Of a stretch of DNA of 32,000 bases, positions 13,784-28,316 are shown in pieces. A program made the position numbers and the translations under genes. Every line of letters begins with the position of its first letter. The stretch's first letter is position 1. This stretch comes from an archaeon. GTDB taxonomy: Archaea > Asgardarchaeota > Thorarchaeia > Thorarchaeales > Thorarchaeaceae. The stretch spans positions 54,169 through 86,168 of the forward strand of contig JAJRZD010000059.1 of NCBI GenBank assembly GCA_024275415.1, given 5' to 3'. Below the pieces are notes generated by a model. The model was not told the DNA's origin. It saw only the letters and a list, made by a program, of their open reading frames with translations, and searched no databases.

Positions 13784-14330
13784 GCAGATTCAAAACTCAT
13801 GCAGCATATCCTACTTATCAATTGTACTGAAGTAGTGTTGGTAATATATGCAAAAAACTTGTAAGAGGTTGTAGATAACATGGATCTCGTGTCAGAAATC
13901 TAGTGTGTGCTTACATAATGTATTTGAAGGGCTGGGATTTGGGGTGTCCCTAGCACACTTTCGGCCTCATAGTTATCCCGTTGCTGCCCATTGGGAGGCG
14001 AACACACTGTTATACAAGCTGTGTAAATAATAGTGTACTGTACTGGTTAACATATTGCCAAATTGTGTTGAATCTAGTGTGGCCCGAACCGAAAATAGAG
14101 CGATTTTAGAAGTAGGATTAACGATGCTAAGATTCTATGCAGACTTGCATTTGTTTGAAATCAAGTCGTTCATAAAAGGTAGTATGCTTCTAGACCCTCA
14201 GCGGATAATCCCTCAAGTAGTTCGGTTATTCTTTGGTCTACTCAGTAGTCGGATGTGATTTCTTGCAATCACATTTATATATTTGGTAGATATACAAACT
14301 TCAGAAAAATGATATAGAGGGCATTGCTCA

Positions 14331-17207
14331 ATGTTGTCGATTGTTCAGGATATTTTGAAAGATATTTCTGGTATTCATCCCGACATAACTTTGAAGAATC
14401 AGATACTCTCGTTGGCTGGAACTATCACCGCAACGATAGGACTGGTATTTTGTGAGAGCACTATAGGTTATGCGTGGGAAAAAATCGAATGGGTCAACAA
14501 TCAATTCAATGTGGCAGTCATATTTTATTTTTCCATATTTTGGCTAGTCATTGTTCTAAGTAACCTAAATAGGCCTTTAGTTGTTCCATTCTTTTTGCTG
14601 GTTTCTGAGGCATTAAGATATTATTATTACCAATTACTATCCCAAATAGAATATGAATTAATGTCATTGATCATGTCTACAGTAGCACTTGTAGGGGGTA
14701 TCATTCTCACAAAAATAGATTACCGCAGCATAATCGGTTCATTTCGAGAGCAATCACATTTATTGAAATCCATGCATAATATAACTTTGATAGCATCGCT
14801 TGTTGCTTGGATTAGTTTGTATATTTCAGGTCATTTCATTGAAACGTGGATTAACATTATCATCTCGTTTGCGACCATCGGGCTGACGATATCATATGCT
14901 ACAAAGAATAAGACATTGAACATCGTGTTTTTACTTAATTACATTCTGGCATTAGGAGTCGTTGTCTTTATTCTCAGCAATTTAGTTTATAATGGGATTA
15001 TTCTATTAGTTACATCTACATCCCAATGGATTGCATTTGTTTTTGCCGTGTCTACATTTGCTGGTTATCTTGTGAGCGAATGCATCAACCTAGAAAAAAT
15101 GATGAGATGGTTTTTAATAGCACTAATGATTCTCTCTACCGCAATAATCTTGCTTCCTGTTTCAGTAGTTCTTGTTTATTCATTCACATCACATAGTTCA
15201 ACGGCAGTCGTGCCTGTCATTGAGTTAGTCATATTCATTAGTCAATTGATTGTCATACTTGGATTTGGTATATATTATCACCACCCAGATAAACAACGGG
15301 CATTCATTTTCTTTGCAATTGGATATTATTCATTCATCACATATTTCCCTATCCTTACCCCGATAGGAATATCATACTATGCATATGATGGTTTATTCAA
15401 TTTGTTATTTCAGGAAACCCATGGAGTATTAGTAACCGCTACCTTGACACTTTTAGTATTGGTGTTAATCAGCAGTAGAAACAATGTAGGATTTGAAATC
15501 CTCGAGCTTAATCTTGATACGATCAAATTCCGAATAGAGAAAATGCACAAAAAAGAGATAACTTTTGACACGCCAAAGGAAAGAAAATCATTACAAAATA
15601 GAATACAAAAGGACTATGATACAATTGAATTAATGCTTGCGGAGTTGGCGGAACATCACAACATAACCCCCTCCATATCAGAATCATGCGATAAGATGAG
15701 GGCGTTACTTGATAAAACATACGACAAAATCATGCAACAGGTAAAAGATCGAAACAAGATACTAGCCATGGCGAACAGACTCGATGAGGAACTGCTTACA
15801 GAAATCAAGAATGCCGATGATGTTTCAAGACCACTAACCATTAGGCTTGAAGCTCTTCAGAGAAAACTTGCTGAAACAGTGAGAAAAACAGACACGATTC
15901 CCGAACCACCAAAGTGGATTCTAAAGACGTTACAGAAAGCTCGAAGAAAAATTAAATTCTTGGAAAAGTATCCAGCCCACAATAGTTCAAGGGTACCTCA
16001 GATTGTAGAAAGAATACCCGAAATAAAGACAACGGAAACATCAGCTGAGATATCGTCATCATCATCAGTTGCTACCGAAGATCCAATCACCGATGAGTTA
16101 AAGGAAATTAAAGTAACAAGAGGCTATGTCATTTCTGGGGGCACATTCCAATACAAGGTTAAAATTGAGAATAACACATCTTATGTCATTACCGACGTAG
16201 GTGTTTCAATAATTTCATATCCTGAAGATTGCATGGAGCTAGGAGAAGCGAGATTTCGTAAGATTTCCAAGATAGAACCGAAGGGATTCAGGTCTCTCGA
16301 ATTCACACTCATTCCTACAAAGGATTGCGTAAAAGGGGCAGTTCTTGCTAACGTATCCTTTGTGGATCACACTGGAAAGATGCAGTCCTACAATGTAGAA
16401 CCCCAAATCATACGTTCCGTATGTGACCTATTGATTCCACTAAAGACGTCACTAAGCCAATTTTACGATTTGCTTGATAAATGCCATGCGGATGGAACTA
16501 GGAAAGAAGAAAGAATAGAACAAAATGTGCAATCCATGTATCATAAGATAAAAAGTACTCTTCCCAGCATGAATTTCCACATCATTCATAGTGAATCAAA
16601 TAATATTGGAGGACAATTCTTTGGCACTGTAAGAGCTTCGGCGAAGGGAAAGTACAACCGTAACCAAATTATCCTTGAAATTATAGCAAGGGGATTCCTA
16701 GAAGAAGATGAGTGTCGGGTTACAATCAGTGCCTGTGGCGACAATCCTAACATGCTCCCAATAACTATAGTTGAAATGATAAAAGAATTTAGGAAAGATG
16801 TTCGTCAACTGAAAAGCTTGATGAGTGTAATTTACAAAAACACTGCTTCTCTGATGGATGCAGCAGGGGAGAGCCAACAGAATCAAGATTTAATCATGAA
16901 ACACCTCAAAAACATAGAAGCAAAGACTGATGCGAATTCTCTTTTCACAAAAGATTTTCTAACCAGTATCCATGATGCGCTAATGTCTGCTGAAAGTACG
17001 TCTAAGCAAAACGAAATTGTGCTTCAGGAAATACTTGATAAAGTCGACTTTTTAGCTGAGAAACACAAGCTACCAAAAAAGCTCCGAAATAGAATTTCAG
17101 GCAGCATTCGTTCATTGTCAAAATCTGTAGTAAAAGAAAGCACAGCATCTTTGCTCTGGGGGGCTGTAAGGGCAACATTAATCATACTTGGGTTTCAAAT
17201 CGTTTAG
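14331..17207 (+). CDS. Polytopic membrane protein with coiled coil and putative GAE + platform (adaptin/coatomer/BBSome appendage-like) region
   Basis: About 380 aa with roughly a dozen hydrophobic segments, a charged helical region, a beta-sandwich pattern (YKVKIENNTSYVITDV...IEPKG...VSFVD), then PLKTSLSQFYDLL and an alpha/beta platform pattern. Confidence 0.8.
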   Translation: MLSIVQDILKDISGIHPDITLKNQILSLAGTITATIGLVFCESTIGYAWEKIEWVNNQFNVAVIFYFSIFWLVIVLSNLNRPLVVPFFLLVSEALRYYYYQLLSQIEYELMSLIMSTVALVGGIILTKIDYRSIIGSFREQSHLLKSMHNITLIASLVAWISLYISGHFIETWINIIISFATIGLTISYATKNKTLNIVFLLNYILALGVVVFILSNLVYNGIILLVTSTSQWIAFVFAVSTFAGYLVSECINLEKMMRWFLIALMILSTAIILLPVSVVLVYSFTSHSSTAVVPVIELVIFISQLIVILGFGIYYHHPDKQRAFIFFAIGYYSFITYFPILTPIGISYYAYDGLFNLLFQETHGVLVTATLTLLVLVLISSRNNVGFEILELNLDTIKFRIEKMHKKEITFDTPKERKSLQNRIQKDYDTIELMLAELAEHHNITPSISESCDKMRALLDKTYDKIMQQVKDRNKILAMANRLDEELLTEIKNADDVSRPLTIRLEALQRKLAETVRKTDTIPEPPKWILKTLQKARRKIKFLEKYPAHNSSRVPQIVERIPEIKTTETSAEISSSSSVATEDPITDELKEIKVTRGYVISGGTFQYKVKIENNTSYVITDVGVSIISYPEDCMELGEARFRKISKIEPKGFRSLEFTLIPTKDCVKGAVLANVSFVDHTGKMQSYNVEPQIIRSVCDLLIPLKTSLSQFYDLLDKCHADGTRKEERIEQNVQSMYHKIKSTLPSMNFHIIHSESNNIGGQFFGTVRASAKGKYNRNQIILEIIARGFLEEDECRVTISACGDNPNMLPITIVEMIKEFRKDVRQLKSLMSVIYKNTASLMDAAGESQQNQDLIMKHLKNIEAKTDANSLFTKDFLTSIHDALMSAESTSKQNEIVLQEILDKVDFLAEKHKLPKKLRNRISGSIRSLSKSVVKESTASLLWGAVRATLIILGFQIV

Positions 17208-17239
17208 AAATCTGGCTACTCGACAACCAAAATATATTT

Positions 17240-17271
17240 GGAAAATATTGGGAGGGGAGATTGCTCCCCTC
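17240..17271 (-). terminator. Intrinsic-type terminator of the hydrogenase operon
   Basis: GAGGGGAG-ATTG-CTCCCCTC 8-bp stem (17252-17271), 8 nt past the hydA stop, followed on the minus strand by an AT-rich tract containing TTTT. Confidence 0.6.
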
Positions 17272-17279
17272 ACACTCGA

Positions 17280-18560
17280 CTAGATGACTTCGGTCATATG
17301 ACAAGAGCAACTGATACATGGGTCATATGCACGGATCAGTCTGTTCAGATTGAACATGATTTCATCTTTGTTCTTGCCTGCGATTTGCGGGAAGAATGCA
17401 CGGACATCCTCTTCCATGTTCACGTAATTCATGGTAGTAGGTGCGATTATGTCTGCCTTCGTCAAGAGACCCTTCTTATCAAACTCGTACGAGTGGACGA
17501 GCGAGCCGCGTGGTGCCTCTGTGATGTGAGTCCCTTTGCCCGCCTTGGGGATTACTTCGGGCTCATGCCACTCAAGGTCGGCCTTCAGAAGCCGTTCGAT
17601 TGTGTTCTCGGCCATTTCGAAGACCTGAGCAGTTTCAATGAGCTGTGCAGCATTGTTATGGAACGTGTTGTAGCTTGGCAGCTTTATCCCCAGTTGGTCA
17701 AGAACCTTCTTTGCAAACGGGAGCAGCAGATCCTTGTTGATATTCAGCCTCGCCAGCGCACCGACAAAGAATGCCTCGCCCTTGTGCTCACAAGCCTTTG
17801 CCTGACTGTAATCAGGAATCTTCTCCTGAATGTACTTCTTGTATTCTTCCACGGGCGCTCTGATACCGCTAAGAGTTGCAATATCCCCATCAACAAGAGC
17901 GTACTCGTCATCCCTGCGTAACGCCAAGAACTCAGTCTGTCGCTCGAATGGAATCTCGTCCAGAGTTGCCCAGACATCCACACACTTTTGCAGGTCTGCG
18001 CGTGCCTTGATCAGGCGGTACTTCATCTTTTCCAGTTCCTCCTTTTCAGGGTAGATGGAGAAACCGCCGACTTGCACGGAAACCTGATGAACCTCGCGCC
18101 CTCCAGTGAGAATCTGGATGTCGTTCCCAAGCTTCTTCAGTTTGAGTGCTATCTTGACGAGGTCTGGGAAGTCAGCCATGGCAGAGATTACGCTTTCATG
18201 ACCAACATAATCGGGAAGGGCGAGGTAGAGCGCATGGAGGATATGGGACTCGATATACTCGCCCCAGATGAGGAGCCTGCGGAGATCGATATCCTGCTCG
18301 GACACCTTGATTCCCATCGCTTTCTCCACTGCCATCGTAGAAACTATCCTATGGGATGCACTGCATATCGCACATATCCGACAAGCGATCTCGGGCACTT
18401 CTCTGAATTCGCGTCCAACGAGGAATGCCTCGAAGAGTCGAGCACCTTCGTCCACAGACATTTTGACATCCACAAGTTTCTTGCCTTTGGTCGTCACATA
18501 GAGGGAGCCATGCCCTTCGACCCTAGCGATATGTTTCAATTCGATGTTGCTACTTGTCAT
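17280..18560 (-). CDS. hydA: Group 3b [NiFe]-hydrogenase (sulfhydrogenase) large/alpha subunit
   Basis: ARVEGHG, L1 RICAIC, EAPRG, L2 RAYDPCISCSCH plus a short cleavable C-terminal extension MTEVI. Confidence 0.96.
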   Translation of the reverse strand: MTSSNIELKHIARVEGHGSLYVTTKGKKLVDVKMSVDEGARLFEAFLVGREFREVPEIACRICAICSASHRIVSTMAVEKAMGIKVSEQDIDLRRLLIWGEYIESHILHALYLALPDYVGHESVISAMADFPDLVKIALKLKKLGNDIQILTGGREVHQVSVQVGGFSIYPEKEELEKMKYRLIKARADLQKCVDVWATLDEIPFERQTEFLALRRDDEYALVDGDIATLSGIRAPVEEYKKYIQEKIPDYSQAKACEHKGEAFFVGALARLNINKDLLLPFAKKVLDQLGIKLPSYNTFHNNAAQLIETAQVFEMAENTIERLLKADLEWHEPEVIPKAGKGTHITEAPRGSLVHSYEFDKKGLLTKADIIAPTTMNYVNMEEDVRAFFPQIAGKNKDEIMFNLNRLIRAYDPCISCSCHMTEVI

Positions 18561-19339
18561 TAGAAAACCAACTCCTGGAATTCCTCCATGTCAGCCGTTG
18601 AGGGGCAATACTTCAAGAAGCGACGTTTGATCTCTTCGGGGGTCGCCCCTAGTTCCTGTAGTATCTTGTACTCGGCACCCCAATTCACCTGAGCCACAGG
18701 ACCACGACAGCCCTCACACACGGCACCATTGCTCGGGCATAGTGCATCACAACCAGCTTGGGTGACTGGCCCCATGCAGAACTTGCCTTCCTTGAGAAGG
18801 CATGCGTTCTCTCGGATACGGCATTCGTAACATACTGCAAAGTTAGGTATCTGGGGTGTCTTGCCAACGGCTAGTGCCTTTACTGCACGAACGAACTCGT
18901 TCTTATCCATCGGACACCCTGGCAGTGCCGCATCGACCTGTACGTAATGCGATACGGGCATAATCTTGTCCATGATGTCAAGATGGTCTGTCGTGTCGCC
19001 GTACACGGTCTTCTTCATCGCGCTTGTATCACGCAGATTCCTCATCGCAGGGAGACCACCATGTGTCGCGCATGACCCGATAGTGATGAGGATCTTGGAG
19101 TTCTCACGGATCTTCTTTATCCGCTCGATCTCGGACTTCTTGGCGATAGAGCCTTCAACTAACGCTATGTCCCAAGGACCCGGAGAGTTCTCAGCCTTTG
19201 CCATGACCCAAGTTGTGATATCAATCAACCCTATGAGGTCAACTATATGGTCCTCAAGGTTTAGGATATTCAACTGACAGCCAGCACATCCTGTGAATCC
19301 GAAGATGCCGACCTTTGGTTTTGCTTTCGCTTTTGCCAT
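18560..19339 (-). CDS. hydD: Group 3b [NiFe]-hydrogenase small/delta subunit
   Basis: FTGCAGCQ, GSCATHGG, LPGCP, VCYEC...C..CMGP..GC...CP...CEGCRG. Overlaps the hydA start. Confidence 0.96.
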   Translation of the reverse strand: MAKAKAKPKVGIFGFTGCAGCQLNILNLEDHIVDLIGLIDITTWVMAKAENSPGPWDIALVEGSIAKKSEIERIKKIRENSKILITIGSCATHGGLPAMRNLRDTSAMKKTVYGDTTDHLDIMDKIMPVSHYVQVDAALPGCPMDKNEFVRAVKALAVGKTPQIPNFAVCYECRIRENACLLKEGKFCMGPVTQAGCDALCPSNGAVCEGCRGPVAQVNWGAEYKILQELGATPEEIKRRFLKYCPSTADMEEFQELVF

Positions 19340-19350
19340 CTCATGACCTC

Positions 19351-20199
19351 CTAGATACTCTCCATAAGGCGTTCAGCCTCGAAGTACGTGAACACAGGCC
19401 CATCCATGCAGGTCAGCTTGTGGCCGACCTGACAGTGGGCGCATTTACCGATGCCACACTTCATCCTCCGTTCCAGCGAGAGCAGGATCTCGTCCCTTGC
19501 GAATCCTAGCTTGAGAAGATCCCGTACGACGAACTTGTACATGACAGGAGGACCACATATGAGAGCCATTGTGTTTGCAGAGTCCACAGCACACACGCTG
19601 AACAGTGTCGTCACGACGCCTACATTGCCCTGCCAAGTGGTATGGCACTCATCCACTGTCTGGTGAACCTCAAAGTCGGGGATGTTCGGCCAGACTTTCT
19701 CGATCTCATCGACAAAGACCCGTTCTTCTGGCAGACATGCTCCGTAAAATATCGTCACTTTCCCATAGTCATCTCGTCTGTCTGCGACATAGTTGATGAC
19801 TGAACGGAGCGGGACAAGCCCGATGCCTCCTGCAACGAATAGAAGATTATGGCCTTTCATCTTGTTCATCGGAAAGCCGTTCCCATAGGGGCCGCGAATG
19901 CCACTCCTAGCACCCACTTCAAGTGCGTGGATAGCTTCGGTGACATCACCTGTTTTACGGATGCCAAGTTCAATGACACCCTTTCGGGTCGGAGTTGAGG
20001 ATATAGAGAATGGGGCTTCTCCGATACCGAAGATGCTAACTTGCACGAACTGTCCTGGGTTGTAGGTGAACAGGTCACGGATCTCAGGTTCCTCGAACAT
20101 GAACTCGAAAAGAGTTTCCTTCTCGGTCATTTGGGTCTTCTTGATAAGCTTCGCAATGTGGGGGACGTACTCGTTGTCTTTCTTCAATTGAACCTGCAT
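19351..20199 (-). CDS. hydG: Sulfhydrogenase gamma subunit (FAD/NAD-binding, [2Fe-2S])
   Basis: PGQFV, GEAPFSISS, RGPYGNGF, AGGIGLVP, ICGPPVM, ERRMKCGIGKCAHC...CMDGPVF. Confidence 0.96.
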   Translation of the reverse strand: MQVQLKKDNEYVPHIAKLIKKTQMTEKETLFEFMFEEPEIRDLFTYNPGQFVQVSIFGIGEAPFSISSTPTRKGVIELGIRKTGDVTEAIHALEVGARSGIRGPYGNGFPMNKMKGHNLLFVAGGIGLVPLRSVINYVADRRDDYGKVTIFYGACLPEERVFVDEIEKVWPNIPDFEVHQTVDECHTTWQGNVGVVTTLFSVCAVDSANTMALICGPPVMYKFVVRDLLKLGFARDEILLSLERRMKCGIGKCAHCQVGHKLTCMDGPVFTYFEAERLMESI

Positions 20200-21303
20200 T
20201 TACAGACCTCCCTGTGGAGTTGGAGATGCTGCCCAGTACTCTTGCAGTCTGAACAGGACATCTTTGATGCTGATTCCTGCGGGACATGCATCGATACATC
20301 TCCCACAGCCAGTACATGCTATTTCCCCTTGATCATGGATAGCTCCACGGAACTTGTGATAGAACCGATACTTGAGGCGGGCCGGTGGGTCTTCACGGAA
20401 ATTGTGGTTCCCTGCGACGAGGGCGAAATCGTAGAACAGGCAGGTGTCCCACTTCCGGACTCGCTCTGCCTTCGAGATAGAAAGGTCAACCTCGTCCTGA
20501 ACGTCAAAGCAATAGCAAGTAGGACAGACCAAGGCACATGAGCCGCAGTTCATGCACTTCTCACCCAGCTCGTCCCAGATGGCATCATCCCAAGCGAGGT
20601 CAAGGGTCTCATGGATATTGTCAATATGCAATGCAACAGGAAGGTTCTCGTGTTTCTTATGCAATGCAGCAGTGAATGCCGCACCGTCTTCTTCCTTCGC
20701 CTCCTTGAAGAACTCGTGAGCTATGGTGAGGATCCTATCACCACGAGGCGACCCGACATGCACATAGTAGTGCGTATCAGAAATCTCCGTCAGGAACAGG
20801 TCATAACCGTCAAGGACGAAGTTCTTGTTAACTGCACGACAGAAACCGTACTTGCATGGCTCCAAGCAATTCAGACCAATGACGGTCGTTATCTCCTTGT
20901 ACGCCTGAAAATATGGGTCGTCATATTTCCCATCAAACACTCTGTTGAGAAAATTGATTCCATTGATATCGCATGAATGTACTCCAAAGAGGATCTTGGG
21001 TTTCTGGTCAAGAATATCCTTGACAGTATCCTCAATAGTGGCATTCTTCAGACTGACCTCCATGAGAGTCTGACTACTTGGAAGATAGTACTTCTTTGGC
21101 GACATGATTGTGGAATCATAGTCGAGATTCATTTTTGTAGGGTCGGTCACCGGTGCGAACACATAGGAGGTACGCTTCGGCATTGGACCAAACACCTCAT
21201 ATTCTTCCTTGAGAGCCTCGACGAGCTTTGGGATCTCATCTTTTCGAATGGTATAGGTCTGCATCACCATCATTCCTTTGTCAAAGGTTCGACCCGCTTG
21301 CAA
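20200..21303 (-). CDS. hydB: Sulfhydrogenase beta subunit (4Fe-4S dicluster); start probably 21264-21273
   Basis: FGVHSCD, CMNCGSCALVCPTCYCF, R..WDTC, CTGCGRCIDACP. Confidence 0.95.
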   Translation of the reverse strand: MQAGRTFDKGMMVMQTYTIRKDEIPKLVEALKEEYEVFGPMPKRTSYVFAPVTDPTKMNLDYDSTIMSPKKYYLPSSQTLMEVSLKNATIEDTVKDILDQKPKILFGVHSCDINGINFLNRVFDGKYDDPYFQAYKEITTVIGLNCLEPCKYGFCRAVNKNFVLDGYDLFLTEISDTHYYVHVGSPRGDRILTIAHEFFKEAKEEDGAAFTAALHKKHENLPVALHIDNIHETLDLAWDDAIWDELGEKCMNCGSCALVCPTCYCFDVQDEVDLSISKAERVRKWDTCLFYDFALVAGNHNFREDPPARLKYRFYHKFRGAIHDQGEIACTGCGRCIDACPAGISIKDVLFRLQEYWAASPTPQGGL

Positions 21304-22019: not shown

Positions 22020-25000
22020 TCATGGAGCTAGGATTGGCATCATATAGACACCGAATAGCACCAGTGATCCAATGAGCGCGAACAGTATCACCAAACGGAC
22101 ATACGCTAGTCGAGGCTGTTCAGCCTCACGCTCCTTGATGAATAGTGCAGTGAAGAGCAGGAAGGGTGCCAAAGCCAACAAGAGTCCTTGGACAAACTCG
22201 CCAATTGCAGAGGTCAGTGATGTGAAGGCAAAACCAGTGATAGCAAAGAAGAGGGGTGCGGCAAAGAGATGTTTTGAAACCCTTAATGCCACTGGGAATA
22301 TGACCCACGCTGCGACGAACATCGCGAGGTAAAAGCTCAACAACGCTGGGAACCACGAAAGCGAGATGAGATAGGTGGTCATCGCGGAGGTAAGAGATGT
22401 CGCAATCCACAGCGCAGTTCGTAGTGACTCGTTCAACAGGCGTGTGAATGTCGAAAGGAGCAGGAACAGTGTCCCTATCATGATAGCAAGCGAAAGGGAC
22501 ATTGGAGTAAATCCGAGAAACTCGCTAATGATCAGAGAAACCGCGACAGGGATTGGTACCCAGAAAACCGAGATTCTCGCGCCTTCGATGCGTTTCTCAA
22601 GGAGGACAGAAAGCCCGCCCAAGGAGGTAAAGACCACACCAAGCCCGATTGAAAGAAGAACGAAGCCGTGATCAAGAAGCCAAGTGCTGGTGGTCACTGC
22701 AGTCCCACCTAGCGCGATGAGGATGCAAGAAACCCCAAACAGAGACTTTACCCGTCTACGGATTATTGCGATCGTAAGGAGAAGCAGACCGAGAATCATG
22801 ACTGACATGCTGTATCTCGGCACCCAATAGAGGACACTGCCGGGGTTCATCCCAATAAGGTCGCTAAAGAATGACTGAGAGAAATAAGACAGACCTAATG
22901 CGAAGATAGATGAGAACATGACCCAATTGATGTAGCCGAATCGCTCGAAGAAGATGCGGACAGCATGAGCGAATCTACGAAATGCTCGACCAATCAGGGT
23001 TCCTATGTCCATTAGGGCTCTGCCAATGACCCGAATGACCCTAGCAAATACAGCAAGGGCACTGGTTATAGCAGACTTGAGGAAGGGGGTTTCCATGACA
23101 AAAGCAAGGAATAGCGCAACTCCTAGTGCGGTGGACGGGTAGAGCCCATTGTGAATTGTCAACCCGAGGAAGGTAGCAGGGAGAATGACTATGCCTGACA
23201 GCATCCAACTCCGTCGAGCAGGATTCATAAATCCGAAGAGGTAGTTAAGCCCTGCCATTAGCATGAGTGATACTGCAATCGACCCGAGGATATGATACGA
23301 AATGACGAGGACATCAGGAGGTGACTCGGGGAGATAGATGCTCAACAGAAGGATCGCAGTGCCTCTCCCCAACAATGCAACCGATGGGGCACGAACCCGC
23401 TTGTTGATAGTCCCGTTCGCAAAGGCTCCTTCCAAGAGATACATCACACCCATTGAAACCGTAGCAACAGACATGGCTTGTAGATAGTGCCGTACATCCA
23501 ATCCGAGAAGAGGACGTGCCGTCTGGAAAAGGAAGAATGACCCGAACCAGACCCCCACAATCACTGGAAGGACAAGCGCGATATTCACAGAGTTCAGCTT
23601 GATGAAAGTATAGAACCTCACCAAGCCAGAATACATGTATCCGCCTAGTGTTGGGATCTCAAGCATTCCCCAAATTGCGATGATGAGGATGTAACTTGGA
23701 ATGCTGGGAACAAAGGCGAATACAGACCAGATGAGAAGGGCCACTGACGAAGAAACCATCGCGTTGACAAAGAGCAGAAGTGATCGTCTGGGCTCAGGAT
23801 GTACAAGAACGAATATCAAAGATGCAAATGAGAAGCAGAGAGAAGTGGCCTGCACAACGAATGTCGGATTGAAGAGAACCGAGTACGAGTAGCCAATCAA
23901 CGTCCAACCAGGGATAGACAGGCTCCACGTCATATGGGACACTTGCTCACTCGAAAGCTCACCCTGTTTTGCCTCATTATACCTGCCCATTGAACCAGAA
24001 AGCACGGAGAATATCGACAGGCTCCACCCAACAGAAAGCAGAATGTTAGGAGGGGGGAGAAGAAGGGCAATCTCCCATCCTGAGATGAATGCACCTAGTG
24101 TTATAGACAGAAGAATAGAAACAAAGTCCCATACCATCTCGAAGTCGAGCCATGTGAGATTCTTAGTGACTGGAAATACTACGGTTGTTGTGAGCAGGAA
24201 TGATGCCCCGAGAAGTAGGACTGAAAGAGGTAGAGCGAAAACCAGAACTGCATGCCAAACCCAGACCACTTCGACCAATACAATTGCCGTTGTGCAGAAG
24301 GATCGGGAGATGCCTTGCTGGACGATGCCACTCCAAGGGGTCCAGATGGATGACAGATACCACACAAATAGTGCTGTCGGAATGACAAGGAAGAATGATT
24401 CGACAGTTCGGTACCCGATATACCAGAGTGAAGAGAATATTGCAGACGACAGGACTCGCAATATTTGCCAGTAGATTCTCCGTTCAGACTCAAAGGATGT
24501 AACGAAGAGTATGCCAAGAGCTGTCATCGATGAAATCACAGCAGATTGTAACAGGTCAACGCTCAGAAGTAGGGACAGGTAGGAGAAAATTGTGACGCTG
24601 AGAGTGAATGAGAGGATGTTCACAAGGATGAACCTTGTTTCCCTCTGAACTTCACCCCAGTTAGAAATAACAGTGATTGTAAGGAACGCCAGTATCGAAA
24701 CCTCGACTGAGAGAATCGAACCCGGCGGGAGTGACCCGTACAATATCACTGTCAGTAAAATTGCTCTGAGTATCCCTAGCTTGTCTGAATGCTCTGAGAA
24801 ACGGTATTCGCTGTCAGGAGTAAGCCTCACCAGCTCCACAGCCACCAAGATTGGTACTGTGTATTGCACTAGTGGTAGGAACCAGAACAGGAGGAATGTC
24901 ATGTAGCCTGACGCGATGCTGAAAAGCCACCACACTTGCCAAGATCGAGTTTCCTGTGCAAGGGTGAGGAAGAGTGTTTCTGTCACCACAAAGCTGGTCA

Positions 25001-28000
25001 GAGTAAGCCACAGCCCTGCGACAGGTAAGACGACCGCATACATGAAGGTCCCAATCGCTGCCGCAGTAGTAATCGGGTAGAGGATACGCCAACGCGTCAC
25101 AGAACTCGCAAAGGGTATCGTAAGAAAAGACACGGTCAAGATGGATAGCCCTGCATAAACAACTGGCTCTACTGCAAACAGGTTCAGTAGTAGAAACGCA
25201 AAAGCGCATGACGAAACTGCAATCACCATATTCCTGCGTTCGTAACCACCCAGGCCCAGTCGTACAAGGAAGGATGAGACCGCAAGGGCGATTAGTATCG
25301 CATTCATTAGTCCCCAAGAGAGGGACGTAAGGAATGCCAATCCACCCGATGACAGCGCAGACATGATTACAATCAGCGACAGCACTCGGGGATAGTCAGA
25401 ACGTCGCGTGATAGCAGTAGGCGCCCAGACGAGGGCAGTCAAGAGAGTGACAATGAACACAAAATGGAACTGCCAATACTCGTGCACAAGTAGTGCCGGT
25501 AGCAGTAGTTGGACGACCAGCAGCGCGATGCTGAAACTGAATATGCCCATAAGAAGAACAATGTGTGCTGCAATCAGCAAGAGAACGAAACGTACCGCCA
25601 TACCAACCGCAGAGGCAACCATGCGTATACCTGTGGTTATCCTAGATCCAATAAACAGCATGACCGCGCCAAGCCGTTTCACCACGATGAGGTACTGCCG
25701 GTACAGAACTATGCAGGGAAGAGCGACCAACGTGGCAATTGTGAGTATATAATCGAACGATACAAGATAGATGATCAGAGTGCCAGTCGGGACGCAGAGA
25801 AGCAGGAATATCAGAGAGGACACACGAACAAGCCGAGGGTTAAGCCTCAACGGCAACCCGCCCAAACCAAATATGAAGCTGGATAACAATAATGCCATGA
25901 GCTGACCCATCTCAAGTGTGGTCAGGTAAGTAAGATTGGAAACCCATACCAAGAAAGTAAACCACGAAAGGTAGGACAGCATGCTTCGAGACCTTTCGCT
26001 GGCTTGCGACCTAAGAGCATTGAGAAGCAAAAAAGTCACAACGGCCGAGAACGAGTATCGCAGTGATATGTGAGCGTATGGAAAGAAACTGAAGGCGAAT
26101 ACTCCTGCCGCAAGAGCAAGCACAGTCATGCAAGCAGACCTCAGACGACCCTTGTACATCCCTTTTGCTATTAACGATGGAGTAAAGAGGACTAGATAGA
26201 GCAGGGTCAATCCCGAGATAAGATATAATGGGTCAATATCAGTAGACATGGTGAACAAACTAAGCCCATACTGACCCAAGAAGTAGATGAGGACTACAGC
26301 GTACAATACCACAACGAACCTGACAAGCTGAACTGCTAGCCACACGGCACCGCGATAGATGACACCTCCAATGCGAATTAGCCCACGCTTTATTACATTG
26401 CCAACCCTAACGAGAGCTGCCTTGATGGTACCTCCGATTCGTGTGAGGACAGACGCAATTCGCCTTGCTACAAGTGCAATGCCACGGGAGAGGGCTGAGA
26501 ATGCCCGTATGTATTCCTGATGAAGCAAGCCTCCTGAAACGAATAATAGAGCGGCGATGGTCAACAAGGGAAGCTGATTGACGGAGAACTGAATTTCAAA
26601 CAGGTAGAGTGTCCTTCCCAGACCAATGACTCCAATTGTAAAAGGAAGTGATAGGAAACGTTTCCTTATCCCTAGACCCTGAAGGAGAGCGAAACCAAGG
26701 AACCAGATAGATGCCAAAGAAAGTGCGGTGTACCAGTCATAGAGTGGTGAGAAGAACCAATACGACAATGCAGCAATACTTAGGAAAAGGACACTGACCC
26801 CTGCAGCATGGATATCCCTCTTGCGAGGATAGGCTTTGAGTGCAGTCACACCAATCATACCCAGCAATGTAAAGACCAATGCAGCACTCGAACCCATGAT
26901 GAGAAACGGTTGATGTAATGATGATGCGAATGGATAAATGACGAATGCGACCACAACGGACGTAATCACCGTGTCAGTAGCAATACCGAACATCACCGCG
27001 TGGGCTTTGATCCAGACCCATATCCTGCGAGCAGCACCAGCAATCCGAGTCCATGCTGCCCTCCAGAGCTTGCGAATCTCCTTGAATATCCCAGTGATGC
27101 CAGACACGAAGACGATGACACTAAGCGGAAGAGAAGCCGGGATGAGGTAGAACTGCAACCATGCAAAGAGATTGAATGCCGCTAGAACAACGATGATAAA
27201 TCCTAGGGATTTAACAACTTTGGATTCCCGAGACCTTTCAATCACTCCACTCAATCGGAATGCCACTGGTGCAGGGACTACGATCAACAGAGAGAGTAGT
27301 ATCGCCAATGGGATGAAAAGGATTGGAAATGCGACCTCTAAAGCCCACGGTGTGCTACTGATGAGCCAGAGGAAATAGGTAGGTACTCCTGATGCGATGA
27401 ACAAAAGCGAAATGCCAGAAAGAAGAAGTGCTTTTCTAGACTCAATGAGCCAGATTGTATCCTCAATAGATATCTGTTGAAGAATTTGCTTCTCAGCCTC
27501 GTATTCGGGCGTCAGCCCTACTGACCTGAGCATCTCCTCCTGCTTCAAAATGGCTTCATGTTTCTTGAAAGGCTTTTGAGTTATCGAACGTTGGATGAAG
27601 CGATACACCTGCGTAGTCATTAGAAAAGATATCCCAAATCCCAAAAGGAACGCAGATAGGGTCACTGAAAGTACAGAACTAGGTAGGATAGACAAGTGTG
27701 AATTGGTGATGAAGAACCCCAACCCTACAGCAAGTAGCAGGGCATTAAAGGATCCAAGTCTAGCATCACGGAGGAGATACTGTGTCCCCTGGGTATATAA
27801 CCACAAGAGCAGACTAGCAACGACCACAATACCCGCAATCTCGACCCCAATGCCCTGAAGGTAAAGGACTGCGGGGAGAGGTGCAGAGGCGATGATGGTA
27901 GCTGAAAGGACATTCCTCACTTTGAGCCATTTGAAATGCGAGATTGCCAAACGGACTCGTAGGTATCGGAATACCCCCAAAAGGCAAACCAAGAATACAT

Positions 28001-28316
28001 GAACAATCACAATTGTAGCAAAAGGTGTATTCCAGAACATTGCCAGCGATATAGCTCCAGCCCCAGCAGCTGTAACTGTAAGGAAGCTTCCTCTGACGAG
28101 ATATTTCATCCTTGCGACAAGGACTCCTGCCAGCCCCAGACCAAAGGTCATAGAGAACATACCTCTCACAAAGGAGTCTGGTATGATCCCGGCAAATAGC
28201 GTGAAGACTGCAAGCCAAATGGCAGTGGGTATTATTATGACAAGCACTAACAAACGGGCAATCGCCTGAATGAGGTCGGCGACACGCGCGGCTTTTTCAA
28301 TCCCCTTCTCACTCAT
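22020..28316 (-). CDS. Giant (2098 aa) polytopic membrane protein of unknown function
   Basis: Uninterrupted 6.3-kb ORF made almost entirely of hydrophobic ~20-aa segments with short loops, plus Arg-rich amphipathic inserts. Confidence 0.9.
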   Translation of the reverse strand: MSEKGIEKAARVADLIQAIARLLVLVIIIPTAIWLAVFTLFAGIIPDSFVRGMFSMTFGLGLAGVLVARMKYLVRGSFLTVTAAGAGAISLAMFWNTPFATIVIVHVFLVCLLGVFRYLRVRLAISHFKWLKVRNVLSATIIASAPLPAVLYLQGIGVEIAGIVVVASLLLWLYTQGTQYLLRDARLGSFNALLLAVGLGFFITNSHLSILPSSVLSVTLSAFLLGFGISFLMTTQVYRFIQRSITQKPFKKHEAILKQEEMLRSVGLTPEYEAEKQILQQISIEDTIWLIESRKALLLSGISLLFIASGVPTYFLWLISSTPWALEVAFPILFIPLAILLSLLIVVPAPVAFRLSGVIERSRESKVVKSLGFIIVVLAAFNLFAWLQFYLIPASLPLSVIVFVSGITGIFKEIRKLWRAAWTRIAGAARRIWVWIKAHAVMFGIATDTVITSVVVAFVIYPFASSLHQPFLIMGSSAALVFTLLGMIGVTALKAYPRKRDIHAAGVSVLFLSIAALSYWFFSPLYDWYTALSLASIWFLGFALLQGLGIRKRFLSLPFTIGVIGLGRTLYLFEIQFSVNQLPLLTIAALLFVSGGLLHQEYIRAFSALSRGIALVARRIASVLTRIGGTIKAALVRVGNVIKRGLIRIGGVIYRGAVWLAVQLVRFVVVLYAVVLIYFLGQYGLSLFTMSTDIDPLYLISGLTLLYLVLFTPSLIAKGMYKGRLRSACMTVLALAAGVFAFSFFPYAHISLRYSFSAVVTFLLLNALRSQASERSRSMLSYLSWFTFLVWVSNLTYLTTLEMGQLMALLLSSFIFGLGGLPLRLNPRLVRVSSLIFLLLCVPTGTLIIYLVSFDYILTIATLVALPCIVLYRQYLIVVKRLGAVMLFIGSRITTGIRMVASAVGMAVRFVLLLIAAHIVLLMGIFSFSIALLVVQLLLPALLVHEYWQFHFVFIVTLLTALVWAPTAITRRSDYPRVLSLIVIMSALSSGGLAFLTSLSWGLMNAILIALAVSSFLVRLGLGGYERRNMVIAVSSCAFAFLLLNLFAVEPVVYAGLSILTVSFLTIPFASSVTRWRILYPITTAAAIGTFMYAVVLPVAGLWLTLTSFVVTETLFLTLAQETRSWQVWWLFSIASGYMTFLLFWFLPLVQYTVPILVAVELVRLTPDSEYRFSEHSDKLGILRAILLTVILYGSLPPGSILSVEVSILAFLTITVISNWGEVQRETRFILVNILSFTLSVTIFSYLSLLLSVDLLQSAVISSMTALGILFVTSFESERRIYWQILRVLSSAIFSSLWYIGYRTVESFFLVIPTALFVWYLSSIWTPWSGIVQQGISRSFCTTAIVLVEVVWVWHAVLVFALPLSVLLLGASFLLTTTVVFPVTKNLTWLDFEMVWDFVSILLSITLGAFISGWEIALLLPPPNILLSVGWSLSIFSVLSGSMGRYNEAKQGELSSEQVSHMTWSLSIPGWTLIGYSYSVLFNPTFVVQATSLCFSFASLIFVLVHPEPRRSLLLFVNAMVSSSVALLIWSVFAFVPSIPSYILIIAIWGMLEIPTLGGYMYSGLVRFYTFIKLNSVNIALVLPVIVGVWFGSFFLFQTARPLLGLDVRHYLQAMSVATVSMGVMYLLEGAFANGTINKRVRAPSVALLGRGTAILLLSIYLPESPPDVLVISYHILGSIAVSLMLMAGLNYLFGFMNPARRSWMLSGIVILPATFLGLTIHNGLYPSTALGVALFLAFVMETPFLKSAITSALAVFARVIRVIGRALMDIGTLIGRAFRRFAHAVRIFFERFGYINWVMFSSIFALGLSYFSQSFFSDLIGMNPGSVLYWVPRYSMSVMILGLLLLTIAIIRRRVKSLFGVSCILIALGGTAVTTSTWLLDHGFVLLSIGLGVVFTSLGGLSVLLEKRIEGARISVFWVPIPVAVSLIISEFLGFTPMSLSLAIMIGTLFLLLSTFTRLLNESLRTALWIATSLTSAMTTYLISLSWFPALLSFYLAMFVAAWVIFPVALRVSKHLFAAPLFFAITGFAFTSLTSAIGEFVQGLLLALAPFLLFTALFIKEREAEQPRLAYVRLVILFALIGSLVLFGVYMMPILAP

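Follow-up and report, generated by a model that had tools for sequence, protein, structure and literature searches.

We analyzed a 32,000-nt window, the whole stretch of DNA considered here, from contig JAJRZD010000059.1 of assembly GCA_024275415.1 (positions 54,169 to 86,168, forward strand), a metagenome-assembled genome (MAG) of the family Thorarchaeaceae. The gene of interest in this window was P0001, whose product was predicted to consist of a multi-pass membrane domain, a stalk, a two-lobed ear (appendage) domain resembling those of adaptor protein (AP) complexes and coat protein complex I (COPI), and a C-terminal helical bundle. The features of P0001 and of the DNA that carried it are listed below, with nucleotide positions in the window and amino acid (aa) positions in the protein.

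14331 to 17207, + strand: whole open reading frame (ORF) of P0001, 958 aa, an uninterrupted reading frame.
14403 to 15473, + strand: multi-pass membrane domain (aa 25 to 381), an orphan with 11 clear hydrophobic helices, from hydropathy and the positive-inside rule.
15486 to 15899, + strand: charged, putatively helical stalk (aa 386 to 523), from composition and a heptad check.
15900 to 16106, + strand: Ser/Thr/Glu/Pro-rich hinge (aa 524 to 592), from the translation, the Pro positions and the low predicted local distance difference test (pLDDT) values at the start of the ear model.
16107 to 16418, + strand: predicted ear lobe 1, an immunoglobulin (Ig)-like, GAE-type β-sandwich of nine strands (aa 593 to 696; AlphaFold2 [AF2] strands E9 to E112).
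16326 to 16424, + strand: stretch between Cys666 (motif KDC) and Cys698 (motif VCDLL), the near-invariant Cys pair of the family.
16431 to 16793, + strand: predicted ear lobe 2, a platform of the TBP/helix-grip-like α/β type (aa 701 to 821; AF2 elements H124 to H237).
16797 to 17186, + strand: predicted six-helix bundle (aa 823 to 952) with a hydrophobic/amphipathic last helix (AF2 model m8dfc6b7b1977).
13845 to 17240, no strand: AT-rich block of about 3.4 kb that held only P0001 and its upstream region, from alignment of the junctions; the borders are approximate.

To describe the fold of the ear, residues 585 to 835 were modeled with AF2 and a 54-sequence alignment (A1). The resulting model (m572cda55854c) had a mean pLDDT of 91.4 and a predicted template modeling score of 0.75. 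It contained a β-sandwich followed by a platform whose elements ran in the order helix, strand, helix, four strands, helix. When the model was compared with the PDB in Foldseek, the top 14 matches were all appendages of AP-2 α, AP-2 β2, β-COP or γ-COP, with E values of 6e-11 to 3e-8 over about 240 columns, and the match of the predicted structure to AP-2/COPI appendages was far beyond chance. When 48,161 chains were searched exhaustively with VIA-align, the AP-2 α ear came first (Z score of 16.5, 212 residues aligned), followed by the β2 (15.5) and γ-COP (13.9) ears. In a second VIA-align pass, which was restricted to the Foldseek list, the β-COP ear (9qpq_H) reached a Z score of 18.2 over 226 of 243 residues at 3.9 Å, the AP-2 α ears reached 16.4 to 16.9, and the β2 ears reached 16.1 to 16.2 at 3.5 Å; 210 residues of 2iv9_A were superposed at 3.5 Å. 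Thus, the β-COP, AP-2 α, AP-2 β2 and γ-COP ears scored from 18.2 down to 13.9 across 208 to 226 residues.

Both lobes were aligned only by coat appendages and BBS9; all other structures matched a single lobe, with Z scores of about 12 or less. In the case of the platform, the AP-4 β platform (2mj7) alone gave a Z score of 13.8 over 119 residues at a root mean square deviation of 2.5 Å. In the case of the sandwich, the GAE domains of GGA and γ2-adaptin gave Z scores of 9.6 to 10, and TRAP-β gave a Z score of about 12. One superposition spanned both lobes, which corresponds to a fixed arrangement of sandwich and platform in the predicted structure. In the model, the ear of P0001 combined a sandwich and a platform in the fold seen in ears of COPI and AP complexes, with the lobes arranged in the same way. 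The original prediction, which was made before any structure was modeled, had proposed a GAE-type sandwich and a platform as in adaptin and COP appendages. Both lobes superposed on ears as it had anticipated, and its lobe coordinates lay within a few bases of the model boundaries. The modeled structure did not turn out to be a generic CARDB or Ig domain with the platform missing; the platform had its own match in AP-4 β.

The N-terminal part of P0001 was examined with a hydropathy scan, which found 11 clear transmembrane (TM) peaks between residues 25 and 381. The loops between the predicted helices contained Lys and Arg in an alternating manner. Specifically, loops 3, 5, 7 and 9 contained four, two, two and two of these residues, respectively, loops 4, 6, 8 and 10 contained none, and the long C-terminal part carried on the series of basic loops. 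Because this pattern fit the positive-inside rule, everything beyond residue 381, including the ear, is predicted to be cytoplasmic, and P0001 is predicted to be a Thorarchaeota inner-membrane protein with a long cytoplasmic C-terminal part. This agreed with the original prediction, in which an integral membrane anchor took the place of the eukaryotic solenoid or propeller. The region that followed was charged (Lys, Arg, Asp and Glu made up 35% of residues 386 to 590). Residues 386 to 523 were nearly free of Gly, with Pro residues splitting the helical stretches, and a coiled coil in this stalk is plausible.

The membrane domain had no homologue in the protein database (proteins with lengths of 526 to 1677 aa were covered), no match in 40 related genomes, which included six genomes of the same genus, and no match in the ESM Atlas. 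No Pfam family reached the cutoff for the whole of P0001 or for its C-terminal part alone. COG6_N, DASH_Duo1 and ARM_5 were regarded as subthreshold noise; the first two were weak and fell on the stalk. A phmmer search of the C-terminal part against PDB sequences found no solved structure.

The ear itself belonged to a large family. A search with residues 585 to 835 against 1.8 billion representative proteins identified 444 clusters at an E value of 1e-3 or less and 110 clusters at an E value of 1e-30 or less. The common unit was about 225 residues long and corresponded to residues 592 to 816 of P0001, whose ear was 36 to 47% identical to those of the Thorarchaeota family and kept 18 of the 18 family-conserved residues. 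A genome scan yielded 77 loci, nearly all in Thorarchaeota/Promethearchaeota MAGs, and many genomes had multiple loci. With a profile of the module, matches were found in 23 of 24 genomes from the same family and in the one genome from the same order (1 to 8 matches per genome), and in none of the 15 genomes from other families of the phylum. The fold and the family membership, taken jointly, are close to certain in our view.

Architectures were compared across 145 clusters in which the module was nearly complete. The ear was preceded by one or more hydrophobic segments in 106 of these clusters, and 38 had at least three. In single-pass members, the TM helix was followed by a basic run and then by the ear, and some family members began with a signal peptide. 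The N-terminal Pfam domains were of surface types and included right-handed Beta_helix/NosD, SBBP, PQQ/FG-GAP propellers, PKD, Big_13 and TSP3. The propellers and solenoid-like domains are probably extracellular because they lie N-terminal to the TM helices. In 95 of the clusters, the C terminus was a zinc ribbon of about 47 aa; a long Cys-free tail was found in 21, and 18 stopped with the module. Soluble forms, such as two-ear proteins and zinc-module rods with an ear, also existed. A membrane anchor is therefore typical of the family and not peculiar to P0001. The ear serves as a portable tail in the cytoplasm, in most cases behind one or several TM helices of otherwise unrelated carriers whose N-terminal domains are of surface types.

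The genome that contained P0001 had two full copies of the ear, one in P0001 and one in a 758-aa zinc-module protein, as well as a platform-only protein. The gene for the 758-aa protein (L001:124-2400, + strand; G000:C45) encoded repeated Cys-rich zinc modules together with a hinge, an ear and a zinc ribbon. Most of the Thorarchaeota loci that were fetched contained an orthologue of about 758 aa, and the conserved neighbors that loci of this type shared were genes for an HD-associated protein, a 166-aa unknown protein, a zinc-ribbon protein of 620 aa and a flavoprotein of the UbiX type. The platform-only protein was 227 aa long, had an N-terminal TM helix and was encoded on the contig of the window, about 21 kb upstream of it (G000:C38:32250-32933; L003:1177-1860, + strand). 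It matched the platform half alone of the ear profile (E value of 5.7e-10), which would make it a membrane-anchored platform that has no sandwich. In several related genomes, ear genes were found in tandem arrays of two or three (G011:C18:42949-47350, G013:C22:47429-52770, G015:C65:8698-12047 and G014:C4:175430-177382), which suggests that local duplication drives the expansion of the ear. In a locus from one Thorarchaeota MAG (L007:57-3931, + strand), two genes for EutA-like proteins (actin-fold ATPases) were located directly upstream of the gene for a 1194-aa ear protein and were co-directional with it. The HD-associated, UbiX and EutA-like genes, and the hydrolase and carboxyltransferase genes near sampled ears, provided no link to trafficking.

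Archaeal ears, including membrane-linked ones, have already been published (Makarova et al. 2024, mBio 15:e00335-24), and adaptin ear Pfam domains have been noted among Asgard proteins (Eme et al. 2023). Makarova et al. (2024) described archaeal "adaptin appendage regions" as Ig plus TBP-fold domains, with HHpred probabilities of 98 to AP-2 β and COPI β ears. The Methanosarcinales ears in that study either had a zinc ribbon or were TM-linked to a GOLD domain, and their loci contained Vps4, ESCRT-III (endosomal sorting complex required for transport III) and SPFH genes. The examples included arCOG15284 proteins, annotated as "adaptin (TRAP-β) appendage domain," from Meth_adaptin ESCRT loci, such as those of Methanosalsum zhilinae (WP_013898571 and WP_013898578). 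The same study described Asgard multidomain proteins in which Vps28-C, steadiness-box or longin domains accompanied the ear.

To relate the Thorarchaeota family to the published ears, we compared a hidden Markov model (HMM) of the Thorarchaeota module with a 599-aa protein of Methanococcoides (L081), whose gene was a distant hit of the genome scan. The match scored 85 bits and covered positions 5 to 235 of the 247 in the HMM. The Methanococcoides protein began with a hydrophobic, signal-like segment and a PEGA domain, continued with a TM helix, basic residues and a linker, and ended with an ear and a zinc ribbon. Its gene adjoined an AAA ATPase gene and an SPFH-Zn-ribbon gene, which is the published Meth_adaptin neighborhood. 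The Thorarchaeota ears are therefore sequence relatives of the published archaeal family.

Compared to the ears of AP complexes and COPI (1w80, 1b9k, 1e42, 2iv9, 1r4x, 9qpq_H and 2mj7), the ear of P0001 had the same predicted two-lobed fold after a flexible hinge. In the AP and COPI complexes, however, the hinge and ear are attached to the α-solenoid large subunit of a soluble heterotetramer, whereas in P0001 they follow an 11-TM domain and a stalk; the family-specific Cys pair and the downstream helical bundle also set P0001 apart. The arCOG15284 proteins, as represented by the Methanococcoides member, shared full-length homology of the module and the Cys pair with P0001. P0001, in contrast, joined an orphan multi-pass anchor to a long helical stalk, ended in a bundle instead of a zinc ribbon, and was encoded outside any Vps4/ESCRT-III/SPFH neighborhood. 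Relative to the Thorarchaeota proteins in which the ear is followed by a zinc ribbon, P0001 had the same ear, but it was capped by the bundle and preceded by a unique N-terminal domain. No earlier description exists of an ear protein whose anchor is an orphan multi-pass domain and whose zinc ribbon is replaced by a helical bundle.

The Cys pair was kept in at least 90% of the sequences in alignment A1, was invariant in alignments A2 and A4, and was present in both P0001 and the Methanococcoides homologue. Cys698 was located at the junction of sandwich and platform, and the pair sat where the two lobes join in the model. To our knowledge, this pair is not a feature of eukaryotic ears.

The tail of P0001 was modeled separately. 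Residues 817 to 958 formed six helices with a pLDDT of 86, in line with the helical tail that had been proposed after the platform. Because the last helix was packed into the bundle in the model, we did not read it as a tail anchor. The bundle was common to only nine other clusters, and a word-indexed search with its sequence gave no further homologues. No specific match was found for its fold, with a best Foldseek E value of 0.4 and a best VIA-align Z score of 8.4 (a designed repeat). Since Vps28-C is one of the published partners of Asgard ears, the Vps28-C profile (PF03997) was also considered; it matched nothing in P0001 or its genome and was silent in the control genomes too. Thus, the sequence and fold matches neither supported nor contradicted the identification of the bundle as Vps28-C. 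Other ears with long tails formed a second group (P0071 and others), whose tail was unrelated to the bundle (hhalign probability of 0.3%). In a quick tree of 152 ear segments, P0001 grouped with the bundle-bearing proteins P0039, P0041, P0064 and P0027 (support of 0.84). The N-terminal parts of the bundle-bearing ears varied from no TM helices to about ten. P0039 was among the comparable members, with 7 to 10 TM helices, a long spacer, an ear and the same bundle.

The order of domains in P0001 (helical region, GAE, platform, helical region) resembled that of BBS2, BBS7 and BBS9, and the original prediction had drawn a parallel to the BBSome. This parallel held only in part: BBS9 (6vbu_9 and 6xt9_I) did align with both lobes over 188 to 197 residues (Z scores of 10.5 to 11.2), but it was the weakest of the two-lobe matches and scored below the AP and COPI ears, and a BBS-like tail was unsupported, although the lack of BBS chains among the matches of the tail model does not prove that the tail is different.

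The P0001 gene differed in composition from its surroundings. The G+C content of the AT-rich block was 0.35 to 0.39 (0.35 to 0.37 at third codon positions), compared to 0.48 to 0.51 (0.52 to 0.61) for the flanking genes. In two genomes of the same genus (G005 and G006), only about 80 and 300 bp separated the stop codon of the hydrogenase large-subunit gene from the start codon of the response regulator gene; the locus was otherwise collinear, and synteny continued on both sides. Because the AT-rich block was absent from the same site in both genomes, the P0001 gene lies in a 3.4-kb insertion that is recent and specific to this strain. A deletion in the relatives is a less parsimonious alternative, and it leaves the composition of the block unexplained. 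No convincing target-site duplication or terminal repeats were found in the flanks of the insertion, which contained only imperfect repeats of 12 and 17 nt, as expected by chance in AT-rich DNA. The 17-nt direct repeat (ATATATTTGG.A.ATAT; positions 14277 to 14293 and 17232 to 17248, 15 of 17 bases matching) had one copy just before the P0001 start codon and one just after the stop codon, and it may be a relic of the insertion or a promoter sequence of the TATA-like type. A search of IMG/VR viral contigs found no ear, and a viral source of the insertion was therefore unsupported.

Eukaryotic vesicle coats have ears as their interaction hubs. In AP-2, the α and β2 ears use the platform and the side of the sandwich to bind short linear motifs in accessory proteins. 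Because eukaryotic ears bind such motifs, we propose that the ear of P0001 may be a docking handle. By analogy, it would provide a rigid platform for short motifs in soluble partners, and a shared machinery in the cytoplasm might recognize, cluster, sort or remove a carrier with a built-in ear. The leading candidate for this machinery would be ESCRT because of the linkage of Methanosarcinales ears to Vps4, ESCRT-III and SPFH. The bundle would provide a second contact or an oligomerization surface, and the zinc ribbon would likewise be a second contact. In P0001, the ear-plus-bundle cassette is joined to an orphan multi-pass domain, and the gene entered this genome with the 3.4-kb AT-rich insertion. 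We consider the reading as a whole, that P0001 is a membrane protein with an AP/COPI-type ear of the Thorarchaeota family acting as a docking handle, to be fairly probable, whereas for the docking function of the ear, taken separately, the case is about evenly balanced.

A more speculative extension is that the ear of Thorarchaeota would be a cargo-borne sorting handle, by which one soluble machinery (ESCRT or a proto-coat) gathers, buds off or degrades its carriers, dozens of unrelated proteins of the surface and membrane; the ear-plus-bundle unit would then be a mobile cassette that could be grafted onto new membrane anchors. We regard this extension as unlikely. If it were true, the layout would be the inverse of the eukaryotic one, in which the adaptor carries the ear and the accessory protein or cargo carries the motif, and a possible precursor of it. 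The time at which ears arose is relevant to how the endomembrane system originated, and proteins that bind the ear would reveal whether Asgard archaea have coat- or ESCRT-related cargo recognition. Since archaeal ears have been published, P0001 does not represent a new kind of domain. What the analysis documents is that the Thorarchaeota ear is a portable and mostly membrane-tethered cytoplasmic tail, that a predicted six-helix bundle is a second cap able to replace the zinc ribbon, and that the ear cassette is still recombining with new anchors and moving between genomes.

Several observations weighed against an AP/COPI-type ear with a docking role. At the sequence level, the ear of P0001 was only 7 to 12% identical to eukaryotic ears. 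PF02883 (Alpha_adaptinC2) and PF09066 (B2-adapt-app_C) matched nothing in the window in a genome-wide search at an E value of 1 or less, no Pfam-A ear family matched P0001 or its C-terminal part at an E value of 0.1 or less, and no ear was recovered when PDB sequences were searched by hmmsearch with the family profile. The top match in the last search was a stretch of Pex19 (E value of 0.06) that was aligned on the zinc-ribbon columns. At the level of genomic context, the flanks of P0001 contained a response regulator gene, a gene for an unknown protein of 527 aa and a [NiFe]-hydrogenase operon. No ESCRT family was found in the window, and no ESCRT genes were found in the sampled Thorarchaeota ear neighborhoods; ESCRT-III (Snf7) genes were present elsewhere in the genome, on other contigs. 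Finally, P0001 may be dispensable because it is strain specific and has an orphan anchor.

The case for homology to eukaryotic ears therefore comes from the fold and from HHpred results published for distant relatives. The low identity and the lack of matches to ear families would also fit convergence, in which a prokaryotic Ig-like sandwich of the CARDB/TRAP-β type and a helix-grip/TBP-like domain came together with no shared ancestry and no ear-like function. Each lobe alone is a common fold, and structures from outside the ear families were indeed among the single-lobe matches: the sandwich aligned with transglutaminase, complement MG and TRAP-β domains (Z scores of 10 to 12), and the platform aligned with KA1, Flpp3 and START-like domains (Z scores of 9 to 10). 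However, BBS9 aside, a single rigid superposition covered both lobes only for coat appendages, whose scores lay 4 to 6 Z units above the best single-lobe matches. The platform by itself was closest to that of AP-4 β and not to KA1 or START domains, and the Methanosarcinales relatives with published HHpred probabilities of 98 (Makarova et al. 2024) were homologous over the whole module. We consider convergence to be improbable.

The same low standing applies to a second alternative, which accepts the ear and gives it a different task. Here, the ear and the zinc ribbon or bundle would be the output module of a receptor, relaying ligand binding outside the cell or in the membrane to a cytoplasmic effector, and would not serve as a handle for sorting or turnover. 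The common architecture of the family (signal peptide, surface-type N-terminal domain, one or more TM helices, cytoplasmic module) is in keeping with a receptor, and a response regulator gene adjoins P0001. However, that gene is adjacent only through the insertion, and in the congeners it abuts the hydrogenase gene directly. In addition, the domains found with the ear included neither a kinase nor a cyclase nor any further known output domain, and the soluble two-ear and zinc-module-rod forms argue against a receptor.

The strain-specific AT-rich insertion, the orphan N-terminal domain and the estimated contamination of the MAG (4.5%) raised the question of whether P0001 might be a decaying or chimeric passenger, that is, a recent insertion or MAG chimera in which an ear cassette and nonfunctional hydrophobic sequence have no role. 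We find this very unlikely. All 958 codons were open, the family-conserved ear residues were intact, and the TM helices were regular with a clean positive-inside pattern. Moreover, the gene was on one contig with perfect synteny across both flanks, and members of the P0039 type join the same kinds of parts. Least probable of all is a relationship to the BBS2, BBS7 and BBS9 core subunits of the BBSome in place of AP/COPI ears: the order of stalk, sandwich, platform and helical tail mimics these subunits, and BBS9 aligned with both lobes at a Z score of 11.2 over 188 residues, but the AP and COPI ears scored 3 to 7 Z units higher with more residues aligned, P0001 had no β-propeller, no BBS chain was listed for the tail model by Foldseek or VIA-align, and most family members ended in a zinc ribbon and not in a helical tail.

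The remainder of the window was examined for other features. No Rfam family was found in the window. Downstream of P0001 and converging on it, a four-gene cytoplasmic [NiFe]-hydrogenase cluster (positions 17280 to 21303, − strand) encoded the large subunit, the small subunit, an FAD/NAD-binding subunit and a 4Fe-4S subunit. A hairpin followed the stop codon of the large-subunit gene and was kept in the congener G005. Farther downstream (positions 22020 to 28316, − strand) was an ORF of 2098 aa, described in the original prediction as a giant multi-TM protein, which had no Pfam match at an E value of 0.001 or less.

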